Shown: positions 18,379-38,973, counted from the stretch's first letter. The stretch is 40,525 nt of DNA from a virus (IMGVR_UViG_2734482565_000012), one strand, 5' to 3'. Notes: generated by a model from the sequence alone, not told the origin. Numbers and translations: made by a program.

Positions 18379-19836
18379 TTAGGAGCGCCAAAAAAAACCT
18401 GAAAACAATATAATAACAGGATAAATTTCAAGGCGACCAAGAATCATAGCTATGCACATTAAATATTTTGCAATGTCATTAAGCACTCCGAATGACGATG
18501 CAGTAGCCCCAAAACCTAATCCCATATTATTAATACATGCAGCCACTGTTGCAAATGATGTAAGAAAATCATATCCCATACCATTTAACACCAGTATAAA
18601 AAACACCGTGAAGAGAGTATAAAGAAAAAAGAAACTCCATACAGACCTCATTACACGATCTGTAACTATCTTCCCTCCTACATTTACACTCAACAACGCT
18701 CTGGGATGAGAAAGCTGATTTATCTCGTGTTTGCTTTGTTTGAAAAGTATAAGAAATCGAAGTGACTTAATTCCACCACAGGTTGAACCTATACATCCCC
18801 CAAAGAAACTTGACAACAGCAAAAACACTATCGTGTGCGTGGGCCAGTTTGCATAATCCTGCGTAGCTAAACCATTATCAGTGAGCATGGAGCTGGCAAG
18901 AAAAAACGAATGAATAAAACTTCCATGCAAGTCATACATACCTATATGCCAGACCTGGAAAGAGGTAACAATGATCACCCCTAAGGCTATTAACAGAAAG
19001 AAACGAAGTTCAATATCTCTGATTAAAGGTTTTATCGTTTTTCTGCTAATAACAATATACCAAAGAGTGAAGTTGAAAGCCGATAGCAGGGAAAAAGAAC
19101 CAGCCACCAGCTCAACCAAATAGTTATTAAAATATCCGATACTCTCGCTATGAGTTGAGAAACCACCAAGCGAAACTGTGGAAATCCCGTGACAAATAGC
19201 ATCAAACAAAGGCATTCCTGCAAGTCTATAACAGACAATACAAGCAATACCTAATAAAGAATAAGTTATCCACAGTGTCCGTGACGTATCGGCCAGGCGG
19301 GGAGTGAGTTTGTCATCCTTAAATGGCCCCGGCATTTCTGACTGATAAAGCTTTGCACCACCAATACCCAATAATGGCAATACTGCAACCGCCAGAACAA
19401 TAACTCCTAAACCACCTATAAAATTTAACTGTGACCGATAGTACAAATATGCCCGAGGTAATGAACTAACATCATCAATTACAGTTGCTCCTGTTGTTGT
19501 TATTCCAGAAACCCCTTCAAACAGAGCATCAATGAACGTTAAATTAAGTTCTGAGTCAATCCATAAAGGGAATGCACTAATAACAGAAAACAAAATCCAA
19601 AACATTACAATTATAATAAACCCATCACGGGTACGTAATTGAATGCCAGATTTCTTAGTTGTATACCACGCTCCGCCACCAATGCAAAAAAATATAACGA
19701 AAGTTATAAAGAAAACGAACAGGCTTTTTTCTTTATAAAACAATGCTACAACCATTGGTGGCAACATTGAAAGACTATAGAGCCAAACCAGGAACCCACA
19801 CATATGAGTAACAACTCTTACATGAGATGTATTCAT
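18379..19836 (-). CDS. trkG: TrkG potassium uptake protein (Trk/Ktr family membrane subunit)
   Basis: 485 aa from MNTSHVRVVTHMCGFLVWLYSL.. (ORF track starts 6 codons earlier); near-identical to Rac-encoded TrkG of E. coli as recalled; AT-rich codon usage; multi-pass membrane protein. Confidence 0.9.
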   Translation of the reverse strand: MNTSHVRVVTHMCGFLVWLYSLSMLPPMVVALFYKEKSLFVFFITFVIFFCIGGGAWYTTKKSGIQLRTRDGFIIIVMFWILFSVISAFPLWIDSELNLTFIDALFEGVSGITTTGATVIDDVSSLPRAYLYYRSQLNFIGGLGVIVLAVAVLPLLGIGGAKLYQSEMPGPFKDDKLTPRLADTSRTLWITYSLLGIACIVCYRLAGMPLFDAICHGISTVSLGGFSTHSESIGYFNNYLVELVAGSFSLLSAFNFTLWYIVISRKTIKPLIRDIELRFFLLIALGVIIVTSFQVWHIGMYDLHGSFIHSFFLASSMLTDNGLATQDYANWPTHTIVFLLLSSFFGGCIGSTCGGIKSLRFLILFKQSKHEINQLSHPRALLSVNVGGKIVTDRVMRSVWSFFFLYTLFTVFFILVLNGMGYDFLTSFATVAACINNMGLGFGATASSFGVLNDIAKYLMCIAMILGRLEIYPVIILFSGFFWRS

Positions 19837-19973
19837 ATCTAAATATTCTTTCAATTATAACCACCTTGCTGCAATATTATGATTATACTGTATAAAATTT
19901 AACTCCTCTTAGATCTTACTTCACTGTTCCTTATGAAACAATCATCAAAATGAATCATATTGTAGTTAAGATT

Positions 19974-20438
19974 TTACTTTAAACACTGCTCGGTTATGTA
20001 TTGCTGAGCACCTTCAAGTTGGGCCTGCATCATTACCAGTCGTTCCCGGAGGGTGAAATAATCCCGTTCAGCGGTGTCTGCCAGTCGGGGGGAGGCTGCA
20101 TTATCCACGCCGGAGGCGGTGGTGGCTTCACGCACTGACTGACAGACTGCTTTGATGTGCAACCGACGACGACCAGCGGCAACATCATCACGCAGAGCAT
20201 CATTTTCAGCTTTCGCATCAGCTAACTCCTTCGTGTATTTTGCATCGAGCGCAGCAACATCACGCTGACGCATCTGCATGTCAGTAATTGCCGCGTTCGC
20301 CAGCTTCAGTTCTCTGGCATTTTTGTCGCGCTGGGCTTTGTAGGTAATGGCGTTATCACGGTAATGATTAACAGCCCATGACAGGCAGACGATGATGCAG
20401 ATAACCAGAGCGGAGATAATCGCGGTTACTCTGTTCAT
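19974..20438 (-). CDS. rzpR: i-spanin Rz
   Basis: N-terminal TM ([18 protein letters not shown]) followed by coiled-coil; immediately after the endolysin gene; start placed at MNRVTAII. Confidence 0.8.
20033..20218 (-). CDS. rzoR: o-spanin Rz1, embedded in Rz in the +1 frame
   Basis: 61 aa; lipobox LVVVGC; proline-rich ([15 protein letters not shown]); fully nested within Rz. Confidence 0.75.
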
Positions 20439-20932
20439 TGCTGACCCCACAAACAGATTTCACGCTCAATCTCACGACGAGTCATGAGACCTTTCCATTG
20501 CTTACCGCCAGCATATGTCCAGCGACGTAGCTGATCACATGCGCCTTTGATATCGCCCTGGTTTATTTTGCGAAGAAGCGTCGATGTTCTGAAATTGCCA
20601 GCGCCCACGTTGTAAACGAACGAGTAAAGAGCGCCGCGCGTTGTTTCCGGTATATCGACTTTGATGTACGGGTTAATTTGTCTGGCGACAGTGGCAAGGT
20701 CTTTATTCAAGAGTGTTTTGCATTCTGCTTTGGTATACGTTTTACCGAGCATGATGTCTTTTCCTGTATGCCCGTGACATACAGTCCATACACCAACAAT
20801 ATCTTTGTATGGTATGTAGCTGACACCTTCCAGACCATCGTTACCACTTGGGCCAGTGATTAACACTGATGCTATAGCAATTGCTCCGCCACCAATAGCA
20901 GCAGCAACGACTTTTCGTAATGATGGAGGCAT
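20435..20932 (-). CDS. SAR endolysin (lysozyme R, phage 21 type)
   Basis: 165 aa; N-terminal SAR segment [21 protein letters not shown] followed by catalytic region [21 protein letters not shown]; near-identical to P21 R as recalled. Confidence 0.88.
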
Positions 20933-21147
20933 TATTCACCTCTCGCAGCCTTGCGCTTATCTTCTTTAATCTTGAAATAAAGGTTTGTCAGGTACGTCAG
21001 CAGGCCAAATACCAGACTACCCAGCACACCGATTGCAGCCCACTGTGACGGAGTTACTCTATCGAGCAACTGTAAAAACCAGTAGCCAGCACTGCCTGCG
21101 GAGGTGCCGTAGGCAATGCCTGTTGAAATTTTGTCCATGGATTTCAT
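20932..21147 (-). CDS. pinholin (S21-type, dual-start motif MKSM)
   Basis: 71 aa from [25 protein letters not shown].. with GGAGGTGAGG SD upstream; two TM segments; highly basic C-terminus; stop abuts the endolysin start. Confidence 0.85.
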
Positions 21148-21249
21148 AGCCTCACCTCCGCACGGAACGGATGGCATAGTTATTATGTGTAGGCTTTCAG
21201 ACACATCAATCAGAGCCTTAATTGATATATATGCTGGAGACGATGCAAT

Positions 21250-21273
21250 ATAAAAAGCTCGCCGTAGCGAGCT
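21250..21273 (-). terminator. intrinsic terminator-like hairpin between lipoprotein genes and lysis cassette
   Basis: agctcgc-cgta-gcgagct stem (plus 21256-21273); on the minus strand it is followed by UUUUUA. Confidence 0.4.
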
Positions 21274-21398
21274 AATAAAATGTATTTCTCTGATATTATG
21301 TTTATTTGTATTAGCTCAGACTTGACATCACAGGTTTCGTATATAGAACATCATCAAATCTGTCAGTTTGCTATGAATGAGATATAGTAATTGAAGAG

Positions 21399-21794
21399 CT
21401 AACCTCGCATGTCAAAGCCAGATTTCTGAAAATCTCTGTAGACTTCCGGATTGTTGAAGGCCGGAAATTTGGCTTTATGAGCTGCGGACTTTATCGCTTC
21501 GCAATAGGCTTTATCACCGTTACTGGTAGATATTTTTAACGCCGTGCCATCCTGAGAGAATTCCATATGCAACCTGCATTTTTTCCCTTTCCAGTTATGC
21601 GGCTCATCAAGTTTGGCATTAATTGCAGCTCTGATTCCCCGCGCTTGCGCCCCCCATTCATCCTGATCATCCCAGCGTCCTGAACTGCAACTACCTGTAG
21701 CAGTAGTTTTGTGGCAATCTGAAGGGTGTAAAGGTGTGCATCCCGCAACAAAACCGACCCAAAAAGTCAACATAACGATTTTCTTTAATCCCAC
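21399..21794 (-). CDS. lipoprotein with TolA C-terminal (domain III)-like domain, paralog 1
   Basis: 131 aa; signal peptide plus lipobox FVAGC, +2 Thr; C-terminal ..KGKKCRLHMEFSQDGTALKISTSNGDKAYCEAIKSAAHKAKFPAFNNPEVYRDFQ.. matches the TolA C-terminal pattern. Confidence 0.7.
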   Translation of the reverse strand: MGLKKIVMLTFWVGFVAGCTPLHPSDCHKTTATGSCSSGRWDDQDEWGAQARGIRAAINAKLDEPHNWKGKKCRLHMEFSQDGTALKISTSNGDKAYCEAIKSAAHKAKFPAFNNPEVYRDFQKSGFDMRG

Positions 21795-21944
21795 TTCTTG
21801 CTCCTCAATCCATTAAAATCTCAGCAATAGTAGTTGTTACGTCCGCCACTGGCTCAGAGCTGACTATCCGCTAAATTTAGCTCAGTGCCGTAGCTGTGTC
21901 AGAACAAACCTAAGCCGAAACCGTTTATTACAAAACAATAAATA

Positions 21945-22373
21945 TCAGGGTTTAAAATCCAGCACCCCATTTTGAAATACTTTATATACTTCCGGCGAAG
22001 GGGGGGCAGGTATATCAGCATTCTTTATCGCATTCATCGCTTCACGACATAAATCGAGGTCTCCACTTTCTCTTTTAACCTCCAGTAGAAGGCCATTCGG
22101 GGCCATATGCATTCTCAGTGTACACTCTTTTCCTGAATACTTACTCGCATCCCCGAACTGTTTTTCGATGGCGCTCTTGATTTGATGGGCATACAGACGG
22201 ATATCCTCACTAACATCAGAAGTACGTTCAGATGAACTCACATACTGTGTCTCTATTGCTTTATCGGAGTAATATGATGTACGGTCATGATAATTTGTCG
22301 ATACAGCATCAGTGCACCCGATAATAATCCCACTAATAATCAACGTAAGAATTGATGCGCTACGAAAACCCAT
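21945..22373 (-). CDS. lipoprotein with TolA C-terminal (domain III)-like domain, paralog 2
   Basis: 142 aa; lipobox IIIGC, +2 Thr; C-terminal ..YAHQIKSAIEKQFGDASKYSGKECTLRMHMAPNGLLLEVKRESGDLDLCREAMNAIKNADIPAPPSPEVYKVFQNGVLDFKP closely parallels the E. coli TolA C-terminus as recalled (..AGQIKSAIESKFYDASSYAGKTCTLRIKLAPDGMLLDIKPEGGDPALC..VYEVFKNAPLDFKP). Confidence 0.75.
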   Translation of the reverse strand: MGFRSASILTLIISGIIIGCTDAVSTNYHDRTSYYSDKAIETQYVSSSERTSDVSEDIRLYAHQIKSAIEKQFGDASKYSGKECTLRMHMAPNGLLLEVKRESGDLDLCREAMNAIKNADIPAPPSPEVYKVFQNGVLDFKP

Positions 22374-22537
22374 TTTTCCTCACATATGTCATATAGTAAA
22401 GGATTATATATACCGTTGTTTTGGACGCTCAAACAGCGAATCAGATCAAATAAAACGCACATTTGTTAACATTTACACAAAGTCTGCGTGGGATATTCTG
22501 AAAGAATATCCATAATGTGGAGAGAATCTATTGAAGT

Positions 22538-22640
22538 GCATGGTGCCGGGTGCCTCCCGGTGAACAAAATGTTCGTGATACCTGTCGGCGACAGAAAAGG
22601 TTAATGGTATCACCCCACCGCACAGGGGGATTCACCATGC
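22538..22640. repeat. dense cluster of nested inverted repeats in the leader of the late operon
   Basis: gcatggtg(22538)...caccatgc(22640) outer arms; ccggg-tgcct-cccgg; gaaca-aaa-tgttc; gtgatacc...ggtatcac enclosing palindrome ctgtcgGcgacag. Confidence 0.4.
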
Positions 22641-22960
22641 AGGAGTTTTCTTAGCAAACTCACTGCGCGCCCGGCAACTCCCAACCACATAAAATGCGGA
22701 GTTTGTGGCATTTATGCATATAACTCGCAGGAATTATCTTAAAAAACTGATGTCGATCCGGATTAAAAAGAAGCAGGTCATCATCAGATGACTGGAAAAA
22801 AGGAAAACAAAAAATACTCATCATACAGTTTTGATTGCAGGGATGAGCCTGCTATGCACAATATGCAGAATATAAGCAAGATAAAAATATGCAGGCATAT
22901 TATTTCGGATCTTGTTATTAACACAACCTTTTTAATAATCATTTGGCATACAATAAACCA

Positions 22961-22990
22961 GCCCAAAAAGAACCGCCTAAACAGGCGGTT
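22961..22990 (-). terminator. intrinsic terminator-like hairpin in the Q to late-operon interval
   Basis: aaccgcc-taaaca-ggcggtt stem; on the minus strand it is followed by UCUUUUUGGG. Confidence 0.4.
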
Positions 22991-23310
22991 GGTCAATACA
23001 AAGGATGCTTCGTCTTTATTATAGTAATCTGAGGCGTCGGGTGTCTTGTATCAGACAACATATTGTCCCGCTAAACAGCGAATTACAAACCACCCTGCAA
23101 TGATCTCTCATCTCATTTTATATGAGTTGACGACATCAGGATAACGCATCATCAGCCCCTGCCAAGAAATATCAAAACTCCCGCCAGCAATGTGTTATCA
23201 CAATATTGTAAAAAAAACACAGCACCGAAACTATAACTGGTCTCTGTTATAATTTGGAGCAGAAAGACCAGTTGCCCAACTAGCAGCATTCTCCCCTGCT
23301 TTCCTGACGT

Positions 23311-23337
23311 AAAAAAACCGCATTAAGCGGTTTTTTT
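23311..23337. terminator. bidirectional intrinsic terminator-like hairpin just downstream of the Q-like gene
   Basis: aaaaaaa-ccgc-attaa-gcgg-ttttttt: perfect stem flanked by an A-run and a T-run, so terminator-competent on both strands. Confidence 0.55.
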
Positions 23338-23417
23338 ACGATGTCCATGTCTGCAATCCGCCTCGCGATACAGCTTTGCGAAGCATAGCAAAATTGAAGC
23401 AGTTTATACGTAAGAAA

Positions 23418-23960
23418 TCAAGCCATTTTCTCAGCAAATGATTCACGCATGGGAATATATAGGGCATACTCAGCAACAGCTAACCAATTAGCAATCCGTT
23501 TTTCGCATGTGCTAAAACACCACTCTGGGTGTGCATCATTTAGCAATTCAGCCATTTTGCGCTTAGTCATCCCCCGCCCTTCATAGCGTTGCCGGAGAAT
23601 GCAAATCAATCCTGGATGCTCTGCCAGCACCTCACTTATGACTCGATCAATACATAACGCCTCTGCATCAGTACAATGCGCCAGCCAGCTCTTTTGCTTG
23701 CCGTTGATCATCTCTCGCAAAAACGCTTCCAGCTCAGCTTTCTCTATTCCCGCTTTTTTCATTCTGCGCAGGGCTTCATTAATGGCTGTTTTCGTCAGTT
23801 TTTTGGATGCCAACAACTGATTGAACATATTCCCTGACCTGCCACCGCCAATATACGACCAGCGCCCCCACATACGTAGTTTTCCCTGAATCCAGACACT
23901 TTCCAGCGTGGTGAGGCGAAGGTGTTCTCCGCTTTTTCCTGTATTCGTTGGGTAAATCAT
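23418..23960 (-). CDS. putative late antiterminator (Q-like)
   Basis: 180 aa; last gene before the terminator-rich interval preceding the lysis genes; basic protein with Cys/His residues. Called by position; family not verified. Confidence 0.45.
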   Translation of the reverse strand: MIYPTNTGKSGEHLRLTTLESVWIQGKLRMWGRWSYIGGGRSGNMFNQLLASKKLTKTAINEALRRMKKAGIEKAELEAFLREMINGKQKSWLAHCTDAEALCIDRVISEVLAEHPGLICILRQRYEGRGMTKRKMAELLNDAHPEWCFSTCEKRIANWLAVAEYALYIPMRESFAEKMA

Positions 23961-24247
23961 AAATGACCTTTCTTTCTCCAGATTTCTTGTGTGCGAAAAA
24001 CCCCTTCAGCATGCATCAGGCGCAATTCTTCTTTGGTGTAATCGCTGGTTTTTACCCGCCCGTCGATTAGATCGTGGCATGAGCTACAGGCTATCGCCGC
24101 CTGCATATCATGTGGTTTTGTCGCTGTTCCGCACGTCCCCGCCAGCCTGTAATGCGCCAGCACAGAGGTTTCGGGATTGTGATTGCAGTAGCCAGGGATT
24201 CTGATCTGGCACATCTGGCCTTTAGCCGCTTTACGTAAATTCACCAT
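23957..24247 (-). CDS. DUF1364-type nin-region protein (YbcO-like, Cys-rich putative metal-binding)
   Basis: 96 aa; CQIRIPGYCNHNPETSVLAH..TCGTATKP..IACSSCHDLIDGR matches the YbcO-like pattern of lambdoid prophages as recalled. Confidence 0.6.
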   Translation of the reverse strand: MVNLRKAAKGQMCQIRIPGYCNHNPETSVLAHYRLAGTCGTATKPHDMQAAIACSSCHDLIDGRVKTSDYTKEELRLMHAEGVFRTQEIWRKKGHL

Positions 24248-24846
24248 TACGCAAACTCCAGTAGTTGTGCGGCCACATTTTCAACTTCCTCCTGAGAGGA
24301 GAATTTACGGAACAGAATCCAGTTCCACAGCACATTCAGTACAGATTTATAAACCTGCTGAAACTCGACTTCGTCCATATTCGCAAAAGCGATGGATTTT
24401 GCCCGACGCCCACGGCTACCGTCCGGATAAATATGCTCGGTGTAAAATCCGGCCTGAATGGTTACCCACTCGCGGAAAGCCTCAAACGACTTTAGCAACG
24501 CCGTATCCCGGGTTCTACGAGTCGCAACGGTGTTAAGGTATTGCTCTGCGGCATCACTCAGGGCTGGCGTGTGTTCCCGACCAACTGATTCGCACAGGTA
24601 ATCAACGAAACCAGACAGCAGTTCTCGTTCGCGAGGCGTGATCGCCCCACCGACCGGAGTCCAGTAATCGAATCCCAGTTGCAGGAGTTTGAAAAAACGC
24701 TTGTGGAATGCGTAGTTACGCACACGCTTAAAGTCTGCGTGTATCCACTCACCTATTTTGATTTGATGCAGAAAATCGCAACTCTCCGGCGTCGCCGGGA
24801 GAAGTAAACCAGAAGAGGTTTGTTTGACCAGTTGTATATGCGCCAT
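24247..24846 (-). CDS. conserved lambdoid nin-region protein (DUF1367-like), function unknown
   Basis: 199 aa; stop overlaps the downstream start; family name from memory only. Confidence 0.45.
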   Translation of the reverse strand: MAHIQLVKQTSSGLLLPATPESCDFLHQIKIGEWIHADFKRVRNYAFHKRFFKLLQLGFDYWTPVGGAITPRERELLSGFVDYLCESVGREHTPALSDAAEQYLNTVATRRTRDTALLKSFEAFREWVTIQAGFYTEHIYPDGSRGRRAKSIAFANMDEVEFQQVYKSVLNVLWNWILFRKFSSQEEVENVAAQLLEFA

Positions 24847-25126
24847 TTCTCAATCTCTCGATGGCGCAGCGCAGCAGATGCCAGTTGTTCAGGCTGACGA
24901 ATAAAGTATAAATAAACTGGCTATGGTGTAAAGCCCCACATAGCATGAACAAACACTACATATCAAATAGCTGGTACAAGGATAGAAATACGACACTTAT
25001 TATTAAAAACGATTAGATAAATTACATTTTAATGTTATGCAAAAGTTCTTTTTTATCATAACATTTCAATAAAAGCATTACAGATGCAATCATCCCGTCA
25101 TCATCAATTATTTAAGGTGGTTAAAC

Positions 25127-25213
25127 ATGGAAAATAACAAGTTCGCACATCTCGCTCCTTTTTTATCCGTAATCCTTTTCGCTTGTTGTTTTATATGGGC
25201 ATTATTTTTATAA
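25127..25213 (+). CDS. 28-codon hydrophobic small ORF (candidate small membrane protein or type I toxin-like peptide)
   Basis: AAGGTGG SD 6 nt upstream of ATG; MENNKFAHLAPFLSVILFACCFIWALFL*; single predicted TM; sits in an approximately 800-bp AT-rich tract with no other ORFs. Confidence 0.3.
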   Translation: MENNKFAHLAPFLSVILFACCFIWALFL

Positions 25214-25604
25214 AGTAGCCACATGATAAGTTGCTGGAATCATATTTCCCACTCAAGTCATTAACATTTGATAAGATATATCTAAAAGGACGCCTTTACA
25301 TTATTTATGCGTATATAATTTATTTATATACACAGTAAAGGTATCCTGGGAAAATATTTATCGTTAAAAAATACATCATAAATAATTAAGCTGAAATTTC
25401 AGAACACAACTAATACACACAATAAGGTTCAGTAACAGTAATCTATGTGGACTACATCGAGATTTTTTGATTAAACTTTAATAACTTATTCCTAACACAC
25501 AGAATGCATAAACTAAAAGTAAAACAAATAGTTATACGAAAAACAACCATATTTATTCTATCTTCTCCTCTAATCAACATATCAATTATGTGTTTCATAA
25601 CAGC

Positions 25605-25644
25605 TTGACATAACCCTCCAAAAGATGCATTTTTAATGCATGTT
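25605..25644 (+). promoter_or_regulatory. candidate sigma70 -35 (TTGACA) plus NsrR-type operator upstream of the yeaR-like gene
   Basis: TTGACA at 25605-25610; AAGATGCATTT-T-TAATGCATGTT (25622-25644) is an imperfect 11-1-11 inverted repeat matching the NsrR box AAGATGCATTT-N-AAATGCATCTT as recalled. Confidence 0.4.
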
Positions 25645-25659
25645 TTGGAGGAGGTGGTT

Positions 25660-25998
25660 ATGACACACAAGAGAATTCCTAAAGATTGGGTAATCAAACG
25701 CTCAACTCCGTTCTTCACAAAAGAGAACGTACCTTCAGCGTTATTAACACATCATAATACAGCAGCAGGTGTTTTTGGGCAGTTGTGCGTAATGGAAGGC
25801 ACTGTAACATATTATGGTTTTACTGATGAGAATGCTACTGAACCGGAGATAAAAGTAGTCATTAATGCTGGCGCTTTTGCAACAAGCCCACCACAATACT
25901 GGCACCGTGTTGAACTAAGCGATGATGCTCAGTTTAATATTAACTTTTGGGTCGCTCCAGACTTTTCGGGCGAAAAAGTCTATAGCACCAAAAAATAG
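25660..25998 (+). CDS. YeaR-like protein (DUF1971)
   Basis: 112 aa from MTHKRIPKDW with GGAGGAGG SD; RSTPFFTKENVPSALL..HNTAAGVFGQLCVMEGTVTYYGF..EPE..INAGAFATSPPQYWHRVE..FNINFWVAP parallels E. coli YeaR as recalled. Confidence 0.8.
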   Translation: MTHKRIPKDWVIKRSTPFFTKENVPSALLTHHNTAAGVFGQLCVMEGTVTYYGFTDENATEPEIKVVINAGAFATSPPQYWHRVELSDDAQFNINFWVAPDFSGEKVYSTKK

Positions 25999-26027
25999 AT
26001 GATCATATTAAAAATGCTTTAACAGTC

Positions 26028-26065
26028 AGACCCGGCAGGGCTATCCCCGACGGGTCTCATTTTTG
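26028..26065 (+). terminator. intrinsic terminator after the yeaR-like gene
   Basis: agacccg...cgggtct stem followed by CAUUUUUG. Confidence 0.5.
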
Positions 26066-26618
26066 TAAATATATTGGTTCTACATTGACAGGAGACTTCA
26101 ACCATAAGAAGTAATCTGAATACTTGAGCAATAAATTTACTTAAGATTAATGAGCGCACCTTGCCGGACAAAGATAAACCAAGGTAACACCTTTTTTCTA
26201 GCCAGTATGTAATCAATCAGAAAGCCGCTCCATAAGAACAACAGCAAGACAATAAATTGCCATTACAGCCGCAATAGCCAGCGCACATTTGAGAACCAGC
26301 ACGACAACCCCCTGTATTAGACGCACACCAGTCCTGATAAATATGAGGCTGTCTCGTCAGTGATTCAATACAACTATTGGGTATAGTTTCTGTGATTTTA
26401 TTCTGTAGAAATGGAACACAACAACCAGTCACCACCAGCACTTCCTTAAATGCTCTAAGTCAGAAACAAGCCAACATTTTAGTCCGCTTTGAGCGATCTG
26501 CAGACATTGCTAGCAGCCTTCTGTGTGAATTCTCAGGGAGCAGGTCGGCATAGCATCACGTTGAGGCTCTTACCCTACTTGTTCACACCAACCCTAACTC
26601 CACAGACTGATTCATAAA

Positions 26619-27620
26619 TTAGTAATCTGCGTGTTTCGCACTTTTCAGAAATGCTTTCATATTTTCATTAGGTCGCTCAATTTCGAAGTTACTTCCATAT
26701 AACTCTTGTAATTTTGGCCATAACTTACTTAATAACCCTCTCCTGCGATAAAATGGATGTATCCAAACGGTAGATAGGTACGGAGAATTTGCATTTGAAT
26801 TGTTTATTGTGACCAGCCCAACTAAACATTGTCGATAACCACTATTATCCATTGATTGTATTTCTTCGACGAATGGATACGCGATTACATCAGTCCAACC
26901 ATGATCGGTTGTATCCCATTGCATTCCGTCATGACATTCCTTCGACTGATAGCGGCGTAAAGCTACACACGCGAGCTTTTGCCAATCTGGAGAATTAATT
27001 GTGATCTCTTCATCGTATGACGCGCCTATTGGAGCGGGTATTGGTCTGATTAATCCAGCATGGCATTCATCATAGAACTTCATGTTTCCCTCAGAAACGT
27101 TGTGTACGTTGGGTTGCTCCATGTGTGCGCCATTCAAAAATAGCTCTGATAGTAGTGTATCTACACTGTAATCTTTATTGATTATTGTCGGCTTAGAGTT
27201 TTTCTTATTAAGGCCGCGAGTAACGATTTTTTGATCAATGTTAACAACATGGAATAATCCGTCGGGGAGGCTAGCGAACCACGATGGGGCATCGGACCAG
27301 AATAGCATGCCTTTTGTACTTCTTAAGAGTTTAATTAAGTTAATACAAGCTTCTTCACTAGTCTTGCCGTTGATGCGAAGTATGTTAGGACTAAAGTAAT
27401 ATTCATCCATATCAGGGAATGCAGCTTCGCAAAACTCCTGTACATAATTTAGCACCTGGATTCTACAGAGATCATCATAGCTGGTAATAACTAAGGGGGT
27501 ATCTTCATTACTATTATGATTATCAATAATGCAATCTATAGCGAGACTTACTGCTTTGCGTATCACTTCAGTTGAATCTAACGACTCTAAAAATTTTGTC
27601 TTTCGTGTGCGAATATCCAT
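26619..27620 (-). CDS. hypothetical protein B of AT-rich two-gene cassette (C-terminal GNAT-like motif)
   Basis: 333 aa; start 15 nt after the stop of gene A; C-terminal ..GYRQCLVGLVTIN..YLSTVWIHPFYRRRGLLSKLWPKLQEL.. resembles GNAT motif A; AT-rich codon usage; no resemblance to core lambdoid genes. Confidence 0.65.
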   Translation of the reverse strand: MDIRTRKTKFLESLDSTEVIRKAVSLAIDCIIDNHNSNEDTPLVITSYDDLCRIQVLNYVQEFCEAAFPDMDEYYFSPNILRINGKTSEEACINLIKLLRSTKGMLFWSDAPSWFASLPDGLFHVVNIDQKIVTRGLNKKNSKPTIINKDYSVDTLLSELFLNGAHMEQPNVHNVSEGNMKFYDECHAGLIRPIPAPIGASYDEEITINSPDWQKLACVALRRYQSKECHDGMQWDTTDHGWTDVIAYPFVEEIQSMDNSGYRQCLVGLVTINNSNANSPYLSTVWIHPFYRRRGLLSKLWPKLQELYGSNFEIERPNENMKAFLKSAKHADY

Positions 27621-27635
27621 GTATGACCTGCGCTA

Positions 27636-28658
27636 TTAAAATTCATGAATGAACGGTTTGTCATCTGGTTGCAAAATGGTGGTTTTATTCGTTGCTACAT
27701 TTAAACTGTTGTAGAGCATAATTGCCAGGTTCGATGCATTTTCAATCAGCGTTTCAAGATCCTGGTCTGTAATCACTACGAGGTTCCCTTCTTTATCCTT
27801 TCCACCACGATGCACTAAGTGATTTCGATTGAGGGTTGCCAATTCAATAGCTTCTATCGGACAGTCTTTTTGTACTTTTATATCGAATGTAGCTTCATAG
27901 CGGTCGATTACCTTTTTAGTGCTATGCCAGCTTGCACTGATCAAGTGTTCCTTGATTGACCTGATTAGCTCTCCCCTAATTTTCTCGATGGGTTCACCCT
28001 TGAAAGGCAACGCAGCAATATCTTTGCTTACTTTAAATTCAGTCTTACCTTTTTCTATACAATTGGCTATGTAGACATCATCTTTCTCTATAGAATTAAT
28101 GAATAGCTCAACATAAAGCGTTTCCAAAGCTGTAATAACATTCGTGTAGAGCAAACTAAGCAAGTGGTTTTTTTGCTGTTGTTCAGTTTTATCTTTTGCA
28201 AGTTTTTTTATTTTATCGATATTATCAATGAATTTTAAATACGGATTACCGGAAGACGTTACAGCGTCGTAGATATCATCATCGTACCAATCATCTATAT
28301 TATTTGAGTTTCCAGACCAGTCAAAACATTGTGTTTGTAATTCATCTACTAATTCCTCAATATACTCAGATTTAACATATTGACCGAAGATGGATTGTAG
28401 TTCTTCGCTCGCATCATACGGCCCGCCATATATGTAAGCATAGCCACCTTCTCTACTTTCATACGGACAAGCATTTGCCGGATCTTCAAAGTTTTCAAAG
28501 AACCAGTTTTTCATTACTTCGAGTTGATCTTTTTTGCTTATGTATTTTAAAGATTTTAGTGGAACTTTCTTTCCATTAACCTCGAAAACAATTTTCACGA
28601 TGTAACGCTCCCTTGTATCAATTGCGCAACTATTATACCACAGCGAAATACAGGGCAT
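27636..28658 (-). CDS. hypothetical protein A of AT-rich two-gene cassette (C-terminal HEPN-like R-x4-H motif)
   Basis: 340 aa from MPCISLWYNS with AAGGAGG SD (ORF track start 28727 is upstream of the SD); C-terminal ..AIELATLNRNHLVHRGGKD.. has RN-x3-H spacing; acidic N-terminal region. Confidence 0.65.
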   Translation of the reverse strand: MPCISLWYNSCAIDTRERYIVKIVFEVNGKKVPLKSLKYISKKDQLEVMKNWFFENFEDPANACPYESREGGYAYIYGGPYDASEELQSIFGQYVKSEYIEELVDELQTQCFDWSGNSNNIDDWYDDDIYDAVTSSGNPYLKFIDNIDKIKKLAKDKTEQQQKNHLLSLLYTNVITALETLYVELFINSIEKDDVYIANCIEKGKTEFKVSKDIAALPFKGEPIEKIRGELIRSIKEHLISASWHSTKKVIDRYEATFDIKVQKDCPIEAIELATLNRNHLVHRGGKDKEGNLVVITDQDLETLIENASNLAIMLYNSLNVATNKTTILQPDDKPFIHEF

Positions 28659-28688
28659 AACCTGCCTCCTTAAACTAACATACCATGA

Positions 28689-28712
28689 GCCAGCAATGTC
28701 CGCTATTGGCAC
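28689..28712. promoter_or_regulatory. perfect 7-bp inverted repeat immediately upstream of cassette gene A
   Basis: gtccgct-attggcacaa-agcggac about 30 nt upstream of the SD of gene A; a TTGACA hexamer lies a further about 40 nt upstream on the minus strand. Confidence 0.3.
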
Positions 28713-28796
28713 AAAGCGGACAACCACGCTAGCTCTCCCCTGTGCCAGAAAAATGTCAATTTACATATGAACTAATGCTCTTTGATCTAGTAACGT

Positions 28797-30061: not shown

Positions 30062-30730
30062 TTAAAATTCACCCATCGCCNNNNNNNNNNNNNNNNNNNN
30101 NNNNNNNNNNNNNNNNNNNNNNNNNNNNNNNNNNNNNNNNNNNNNNNNNNNNNNNNNNNNNNNNNNNNNNNNNNNNNNNNNNNNNNNNNNNNNNNNNNNN
30201 NNNNNNNNNNNNNNNNNNNNNNNNNNNNNNNNNNNNNNNNNNNNNNNNNNNNNNNNNNNNNNNNNNNNNNNNNNNNNNNNNNNNNNNNNNNNNNNNNNNN
30301 NNNNNNNNNNNNNNNNNNNNNNNNNNNNNNNNNNNNNNNNNNNNNNNNNNNNNNNNNNNNNNNNNNNGATAGCTGCCGCTAAGTGGTTCTTCCCGGTACC
30401 AGGTTTTCCGCTGAACGCAAAATTTGTACACCCGGTCATCAGTTCATCAGCGATGGATTTCGCCTGACTCAACGCGTATCGCTGCGCTTCGTTCTGCACC
30501 TGGTAATTCGAAAACGAGCATTTGCGGTGCAATGGCTGGATGCCAGAGCGATTCAGAATTTTTTCCACCCGCAACTGACGATTCTGACGGTTGATCTCCT
30601 CACAACGTTTCTGGCCTTCGGAAAGTTGCCACTCGCGCCACTCCGCTACCGTCTTGAATGGCGCGGTTACATGTGACGGGGCCAGTCTGCGGATACGTTC
30701 AAGAACGTCGCCTGTCGCAATATTTTTCAT
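30062..30730 (-). CDS. ydaV: DnaC/IstB-like replication ATPase, interrupted by assembly gap
   Basis: Walker [15 protein letters not shown]; matches Rac YdaV as recalled; C-terminal part replaced by N-run. Confidence 0.8.
30081..30367. other. assembly gap (run of N)
   Basis: 287 consecutive N within the ydaV-like gene. Confidence 0.99.
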
Positions 30731-38597: not shown

Positions 38598-38792
38598 ATG
38601 AGATATGACAATGTTAAACCATGTCCATTTTGTGGTTGTCCATCAGTAACGGTGAAAGCCATTTCAGGATATTACCGAGCGAAGTGTAACGGATGCGAAT
38701 CCCGAACCGGTTATGGTGGAAGTGAAAAAGAAGCACTCGAACGATGAAATAAACGAACCACTGGAAATAATAATGGAGGTGTTCATGTATAA
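38598..38792 (+). pseudogene. ralR: ralR (restriction-alleviation / type I toxin) frame with in-frame TGA at codon 50
   Basis: ATG 38598: MRYDNVKPCPFCGCPSVTVKAISGYYRAKCNGCESRTGYGGSEKEALER then TGA (38745-38747); the same frame stays open 14 more codons (NKRTTGNNNGGVHV) to TAA at 38790-38792. Confidence 0.5.
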
Positions 38793-38973
38793 AATTACCG
38801 CCACTATTGAAAAGGAAGGTGGCACTCCTACTAACTGGACAAGATATTCAAAATCTAAACTAACGAAATCAGAATGCGAAAAAATGCTCTCAGGTAAAAA
38901 AGAAGCAGGCGTTTCCAGAGAGCAGAAAGTAAAACTGATAAATTTTAATTGCGAGAAACTTCAGTCCTCGTGA
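38785..38973 (+). CDS. ydaC: YdaC-like small protein
   Basis: GGAGG SD then ATG at 38785; MYKITATIEKEGGTPTNWTRYSKSKLTKSECEKMLSGKKEAGVSREQKVKLINFNCEKLQSS. Confidence 0.65.
   Translation: MYKITATIEKEGGTPTNWTRYSKSKLTKSECEKMLSGKKEAGVSREQKVKLINFNCEKLQSS

Follow-up and report, generated by a model that had tools for sequence, protein, structure and literature searches.

NsrR is an Fe-S repressor of the Rrf2 family that is inactivated by NO. Both gut and extraintestinal E. coli face NO, a major stress, from host immunity and from nitrate/nitrite respiration. Lambdoid phages carry morons that answer to host regulators, such as lambda bor and lom, Gifsy-2 sodCI and the Fur-regulated stx1. Among the closest described relatives of the gene analyzed here is STM1808 of Salmonella enterica serovar Typhimurium, which is reported to aid growth of Salmonella under NO; its product is also said to bind zinc, with H32 and H82 reportedly needed for both zinc binding and NO resistance. 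A passage in PMC7527575 counts STM1808 among the NsrR-regulated genes and assigns it a role in virulence, crediting both statements to Karlinsey 2012. In E. coli, the yeaR-yoaG promoter contains an NsrR box, and both nitrate and NO induce the operon (PMC5320621); tehB homologs were predicted to belong to the NsrR regulon in all enterobacteria and in Photobacterium profundum (Rodionov 2005; PMC1274295). NsrR control of the gene family has been known or predicted from such work (2005, 2012), and the literature searched describes neither a prophage gene with an NsrR operator nor the present locus, so that a phage-borne E. coli member with its own operator appears to be unreported. Here we describe a self-contained cargo cassette in a Rac-type prophage which, judging from its promoter region, is probably controlled by host NsrR.

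The stretch of DNA analyzed, hereafter the window (40,525 nucleotides), is a Rac-type lambdoid prophage of E. coli. The RefSeq chromosome of E. coli LD39-1 is 100% identical to the 801 nt that were queried and to most of positions 19001-26530 of the window, and the element in LD39-1 adjoins ttcA and includes intR, xisR, recET, ralR, kilR, sieB and trkG. Masked sequence appears in the window as runs of N at 647-952 and 30081-30367. From position 124 to about 32350, the phage-gene ORFs of at least 100 aa that match annotated genes are all on the minus strand, and the sole plus-strand gene within these ~32 kb encodes a 112-aa DUF1971 protein of the STM1808 family (CDS 25660-25998, plus strand; Pfam match, orthologs and purifying selection). 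The first ATG of this ORF, at 25636, falls within the operator described below, and it was ruled out as the start codon, as the RefSeq annotation and all orthologs begin at 25660.

Upstream of the gene, a -35 hexamer TTGACA can be read at 25605-25610 (plus strand); it aligns with a conserved TTTACA in chromosomal orthologs and is invariant in all prophage alleles. The best sigma-70 combination joins it, at 17-bp spacing, to CATTTT (25628-25633, plus strand) in the left half of the operator as the predicted -10, so that 9 of the 12 promoter positions are matched, although the -10 itself is weak (3/6). An alternative -10, TTTAAT (25632-25637, plus strand), lies four nt to the right of CATTTT, also inside the box, and reads TATAAT in the alleles designated V2 and V3, which is a perfect match at the center of the box. 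The position of the transcription start is predicted from these hexamers. The Shine-Dalgarno region GGAGGAGGTGG (25647-25657, plus strand), read from the sequence, is kept in orthologs, and its GGAGG ends 5 nt 5' of the ATG at 25660. Directly 3' of the gene there is an intrinsic-terminator-like hairpin followed by a T-run (26028-26066, plus strand), with a 7-bp GC-rich stem formed by 26028-26034 and 26051-26057 and then CATTTTTGT; folding gave a dG of -17.4 kcal/mol (z -2.65), and one allele (L123) keeps the inner stem through a compensatory two-sided change, GGG/CCC to GAG/CTC. No further plus-strand ORF lies downstream of the gene. A strict promoter and terminator scan of the plus strand called neither element of the cassette, because the -10 matches at only 3/6 positions and the terminator loop is long; both were instead established by direct reading, folding and ortholog alignment. 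Thus, the features listed in a preliminary description of the locus, namely a gene on the strand opposite to the phage genes with its own TTGACA, strong Shine-Dalgarno site and terminator, are all present.

The protein matches Pfam DUF1971 (PF09313) over the entire model (positions 1-80 of 80), with an E-value of 2.3e-26 and a score of 92 bits, where the cut-off is 23.1. It is 79% identical, over its full length, to a 113-aa Salmonella protein that is encoded directly downstream of fadR-nhaB-dsbB, and 41% identical to YeaR of E. coli K-12. We take the position just downstream of dsbB in Salmonella to be the STM1808 locus. Judged by these alignments, the window protein is an ortholog of STM1808 and a paralog of YeaR. 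Hence, of the designation yeaR-like in the preliminary description, the DUF1971 membership stands, while the YeaR-type identity does not, given the two identity values and the lack of both yoaG (DUF1869) and a NarL site. His31, His32 and His82 are the same as in STM1808, and together with C43 they are invariant in the subfamily alignment (A1), in which mean column identity is 82%. Among solved structures the closest match is PDB 3DL3 ('tellurite resistance protein B', 119 aa; E=3.5e-59, residues 1-111), followed by YeaR (PDB 3BB6), and both represent the same domain as the window protein, as does the N-terminal domain of TehB. Unlike TehB, the window protein lacks a methyltransferase domain: of the 289 positions in the NCBIfam TehB model it covers only 11-106, with 49 bits against a cut-off of 303. 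A TehB methyltransferase was ruled out on these grounds, the SAM-dependent methyltransferase domain being absent and the match N-terminal only, and sequence comparison indicates that the 'TehB family' annotations of this gene are misleading. PADLOC returned zero matches for the DUF1971 protein and two neighboring cargo proteins.

The putative operator is the palindrome AAGATGCATTTTTAATGCATGTT at 25622-25644, an 11-1-11 inverted repeat (AAGATGCATTT-T-TAATGCATGTT) with 2 mismatches to a perfect ytfE-type box. It is the only match to the ytfE-type box within 3 mismatches in the window, and there was none in 100 shuffles; as an 11-1-11 repeat matching the AAGATGCATTT consensus it belongs with the E. 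coli-type NsrR operators. To score it formally, we used a palindromic weight matrix built from 18 published NsrR sites of E. coli CFT073 (PMC5320621 Table 4), comprising 16 ChIP-seq-positive sites plus yeaR and ygbA and excluding the window site. On this matrix the window operator scores 26.9 bits, corresponding to P of about 2.6e-10 per position from the exact score distribution, and sites this strong are expected ~1e-5 times per 40.5-kb window and ~1e-3 times per 5-Mb genome. Among the sites of the published table only ytfE (31.2 bits) scores higher, with hcp at 25.3, yeaR at 24.4, ygbA at 23.5 and hmp at 21.1 bits, and ChIP-positive sites reach as low as 12.6 bits. What had been described as a near match to the NsrR inverted-repeat box is therefore, on a formal motif scan, unique in the window and far above threshold, second only to ytfE.

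Both candidate -10 hexamers fall inside the box, and this layout is conserved in orthologs. A bound dimer would therefore cover the -10 and the start whichever hexamer is used. Motif scans of 260 nt upstream found no NarL, FNR, CRP, Fur or IscR-like sites, so the unit resembles a constitutive promoter that NsrR alone would gate. Co-activation by NarL in the style of yeaR was likewise dropped, there being no NarL heptamer or 7-2-7 site upstream. Many phage operators are palindromic, and the prophage location could suggest that the palindrome is the operator of a phage-encoded regulator of CI/Cro type, or of some other regulator such as Fur, IscR, NarL or FNR. We regard this as highly improbable. 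The palindrome has no second copy in the 40.5-kb prophage, where the next best matrix match reaches 14.4 bits and lies within a CDS, and a phage-repressor operator was rejected on this count; the negative scans speak against the other regulators; and the same box precedes orthologs in non-phage settings, both dsbB-linked (29 genomes) and murQP-linked (Kluyvera).

These orthologs also reveal how closely the putative NsrR operator is tied to the gene. We took 80 loci from species-representative genomes and scored 200 nt upstream with the same NsrR matrix. A box of at least 15 bits was found in 55 of 82 upstream regions; for comparison, the 99th percentile lies at 11.6 bits in a background set of 2949 205-nt windows drawn from these loci. 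Within Enterobacteriaceae, 52 of 53 regions have a box of 19.8-30.6 bits (mostly 24-30) placed 15-27 nt before the ATG, the lone exception being a Leclercia locus (L012) in which the box is shifted by a 1-bp indel. The genera with a box number 14: Kluyvera, Leclercia, Pantoea, Enterobacter, Silvania, Pseudescherichia, Buttiauxella, Citrobacter, Klebsiella, Raoultella, Salmonella, Yokenella, Phytobacter and Shigella. Since nearly all Enterobacteriaceae orthologs have the box, gene and operator travel together. In Vibrionaceae, Shewanella and Oceanospirillales (Vibrio, Aliivibrio, Shewanella, Neptunomonas) the box is mostly absent within 200 nt upstream, so the linkage is enterobacterial rather than universal. 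Two Photobacterium orthologs do have the box, which, together with the enterobacterial pattern, fits the prediction of Rodionov 2005 (PMC1274295).

In the closest promoters, alignment shows a conserved TTTACA-17-TATTTT with the -10 at the end of the left half-site, and the TTGACA-17-CATTTT of the prophage occupies the same columns. The closest proteins (80-82% identity) come from orthologs of Kluyvera, Leclercia, Pantoea and Enterobacter pasteurii type, which share the promoter-operator layout (AAGATGTATTTTAAATGCATGTT, 17 nt from box to ATG) but, unlike the prophage copy, have a housekeeping, non-phage setting, with murQ/murP/murR-like and fimbrial genes around the closest chromosomal relatives (82%) in Kluyvera. 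They also differ in a Fur-box-like element, GATAATGAGATTYATTATC, which is missing from the prophage copy. This element has 13-17 of 19 matches and lies beside the -35, at approximately -85 to -65 from the ATG, in Kluyvera/Leclercia/Pantoea/Buttiauxella-type orthologs (L006, L007, L009, L010, L013, L016, L018, L022, L026 and L027), which suggests dual control of those chromosomal copies by Fur and NsrR. It was not found in the prophage, Salmonella, Citrobacter or Klebsiella copies, where 10-12 of 19 matches correspond to chance level. STM1808 resembles the window gene in being a single gene with an 11-1-11 NsrR box over the -10 (AAGGTGTATATTAAATACACCTT, 26.3 bits) within a longer palindrome. 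The Salmonella gene is core chromosomal and downstream of dsbB, with 27 nt from box to ATG, whereas the window copy has 15 nt and is prophage cargo on the strand opposite to the phage genes; rather than following nhaB-dsbB, the ancestral site, it adjoins the DUF1367/DUF1364/Q module, a position inessential to function. E. coli yeaR-yoaG likewise combines a DUF1971 protein with an NsrR box in the promoter; its box lies ~67 nt before the ATG and is weaker than that of the window.

The NsrR box is itself the core of a longer, near-perfect palindrome of 37 bp, CCTCCAAAAG...CATGTTTTGGAGG (25615-25651), the right arm of which holds the first GGAGG. Longer palindromes of 37-41 bp around the NsrR box also occur in Citrobacter, Salmonella and Yokenella (L028-L062), in L003 and in L075. 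The 7 bp on each side exceed what NsrR needs, and this, with the GGAGG in the right arm, raises the alternative that the palindrome acts mainly as a nucleic-acid hairpin, either a stem in the 5'-UTR that hides the Shine-Dalgarno site or stabilizes the mRNA, or a DNA cruciform, and not as a protein operator. As RNA the palindrome folds with -25.1 kcal/mol (z -5.7). Moreover, in the outer rings (12-20) of 59 distinct operators 56.5% of cells are complementary, whereas controls with a slid partner column reach no more than 41.6%; the outer-arm covariation score is 0.344 compared to at most 0.186 in these controls. These rings use several pair types, and the arm sequence varies by lineage while complementarity is kept; two-sided pair changes are seen in Citrobacter (arms GGCATCTAT, GGCATTTAT and GGCACCTAT, each with its matching partner arm), in Salmonella and in the V2 allele. 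The inner 23 bp, on the other hand, show sequence conservation, each ring having essentially a single pair type, and fit the NsrR matrix, as contact with a protein predicts, and Kluyvera- and Leclercia-type orthologs keep the box without the outer arms. Since both -10 candidates are inside the palindrome, the transcript should start in the right arm, which would make an RNA stem impossible, and a second GGAGG (25650-25654) is largely outside the stem. The covariation of the outer arms may stem from selection on a hairpin, but it could also arise without selection, by template-switch correction of a quasi-palindrome. Taken together, we find it rather implausible that the hairpin is the main function, and consider an NsrR operator the better reading of the palindrome.

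Every prophage allele retains TTGACA, the Shine-Dalgarno site and a box of 18-27.7 bits. Roughly, the window allele (V1) accounts for ~6% of carriers, V2 for ~60% and V3-type alleles for ~30%; box strengths are 19.8 bits for V2 (L122 and L086), with other alleles at 25-26 and 26.7-27.7 bits, L123 and L124 being of V3 type. The low score of V2 reflects a degraded left half-site with two changes (AACACGCATTT), and is near that of hmp. Over 1.7 kb, V1 and V2 differ at ~12 positions, 5 of which lie within the 37-bp palindrome (Poisson P ~8e-6), one of the five being a compensatory outer-arm pair (25619 and 25647), whereas the CDS shows a single synonymous change. The operator is thus a substitution hotspot between otherwise near-identical prophage alleles, and, if NsrR control holds, the natural variants would offer a ready-made series for relating operator strength to NO responsiveness. 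This hotspot, the degraded half-site of the commonest allele and the 26-31% GC of the surrounding DNA might be taken to mean that the box is an inherited relic, the cassette being constitutive or silenced, for instance by H-NS, with NsrR having no meaningful effect. Indeed, H-NS silencing could dominate expression in such AT-rich flanking DNA. Yet no allele falls below 18 bits, far from the low end of the ChIP-positive sites, the alleles keep the right half-site as well as the key ATGCAT cores, and the CDS is under purifying selection. A relic is therefore unlikely in our view, if marginally less so than a hairpin, though conceivable for the commonest allele.

A sensitive blastn search found the gene in 458 of 5426 complete E. 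coli genomes (~8%), in all cases at 95% identity or more, the carriers originating from poultry, pigs, cattle, wastewater and human samples. The same method picks up relatives of 75-78% identity, so that a chromosomal ortholog in E. coli would have been detected; no chromosomal copy of the STM1808 subfamily was found among the 5426 complete genomes. All inspected E. coli copies sit in Rac-type prophages, and the gene is also present in three phage genomes of the phage collection and in 35 viral contigs of E. coli prophage type. The left flank is always linked, with a Q-like DUF1133 gene, DUF1364, DUF1367 and an AT-rich block of 26-31% GC (24940-25604) that accompanies every E. coli and viral copy, and the homology of cassette-less phages to the window ends near 24939. 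To the right, homology stops at one of three points: the stop codon, 26372 or ~26500. The related phages vB_EcoS-683R6 and Rac-SA53 share the Q module and have other cargo in the slot, an S8 peptidase plus an FtsH-like gene in the former (L125, 5361-8540) and rem with hok/mok in the latter (L126). Near its lysis module, Rac-SA53 also has genes for LT-IIa and pertussis-like toxins.

The slot is thus a general cargo hotspot in Rac-type phages, and the label moron, already proposed for the cassette, is borne out by this alternative cargo. Having its own promoter and terminator, and being present in some but not all related phages, the cassette is a moron. It resembles the classical lambdoid morons in this respect as well as in its location between phage modules, the expected expression in the lysogen and the input from a host transcription factor, and differs from them in that this input would come from the NO sensor NsrR. 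Prophage alleles compared with one another give a pN/pS of 0.03-0.21, and comparison with chromosomal orthologs gives 0.12-0.14; the gene is therefore functional and under purifying selection. Synonymous sites are saturated relative to Kluyvera, Enterobacter and Salmonella (pS ~0.9), which rules out recent capture from a sampled chromosome; the capture is either old or from an unsampled lineage.

Several other elements near the cassette deserve mention. GC content is very low, 26-31% compared to 45% window-wide, throughout 24950-25700, which spans the spacer and the cassette promoter; this region is likely an H-NS target, adding a possible second layer of silencing. Within the AT-rich block there is an unannotated ORF for a hydrophobic 28-aa peptide, MENNKFAHLAPFLSVILFACCFIWALFL (25127-25213, plus strand), with AAGGTGG as a good Shine-Dalgarno sequence; none of the alleles checked disrupts it, and V3 differs at three amino acids. 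Another short hydrophobic ORF (...VLVLKCALAIAAVMAIYCLAVVLMERLSD), at ~26213-26302 (minus strand), has a GGGGG Shine-Dalgarno-like element and is unannotated in RefSeq. V3 prophages have a Hok/Gef gene at the same position, which may be a slot for type I toxins. Beyond it, a variable cargo slot (26619-28727, minus strand) encodes two hypothetical proteins of 333 and 363 aa with weak matches to GNAT (E=9e-4) and to a HEPN/RES N-terminal domain (E=2e-4) and none in PADLOC, which could be an uncharacterized defense or toxin pair; other alleles have QueH, KilA-N or other genes there. In a search of 24800-26650, Rfam returned nothing but a meaningless miRNA match (E=0.12). Above the gathering score, Rfam identified the STnc100 sRNA (22484-22670, minus strand; 86.6 bits), which lies downstream of the Q module, as well as the RalR antitoxin RalA (38791-38969, minus strand; 225 bits).

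Based on the biology of NsrR and on STM1808, we propose the following scheme. In the lysogen, host NsrR would bind the 11-1-11 operator over the -10 and the probable start of transcription, and would thereby exclude RNA polymerase and keep the gene repressed. NO would nitrosylate the NsrR cluster and release NsrR from the DNA, whereupon the TTGACA promoter would fire with no need for an activator. The small cupin-like protein would then aid growth under nitrosative stress, as STM1808 does in Salmonella; we hold such a protective role with somewhat less confidence than the control by NsrR. Because E. coli has no chromosomal copy of the subfamily, the prophage would add a member to the host NsrR regulon, amounting to lysogenic conversion for NO tolerance, and lysogens probably gain an NO-inducible stress gene otherwise missing from E. 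coli.

A more speculative idea, which we consider unlikely, is that through the cassette NO also acts on the development of the phage itself. The cassette is always directly upstream of the DUF1367-DUF1364-Q module in the early rightward (pR-type) sense, and points against that transcription. Removal of NsrR by NO could set off convergent antisense transcription (25640-26066) that collides or pairs with the early transcript, which has to traverse the cassette on its way to Q. In lambda, the antisense promoter paQ lowers Q, and by analogy such antisense transcription could delay the late genes under nitrosative stress. A related possibility is that, in lytic growth, phage replication multiplies this very strong operator so far that the scarce NsrR is titrated away and the NO-defense regulon of the host is derepressed.

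If the proposed control by NsrR is correct, the database labels of this gene would need correction, as it is neither 'TehB' nor yeaR. Approximately 8% of complete E. coli genomes would gain an NO function through a Rac-type prophage, and the prophage would be wired into the NsrR regulon of its host, representing a clean case of lysogenic conversion under a host redox sensor.
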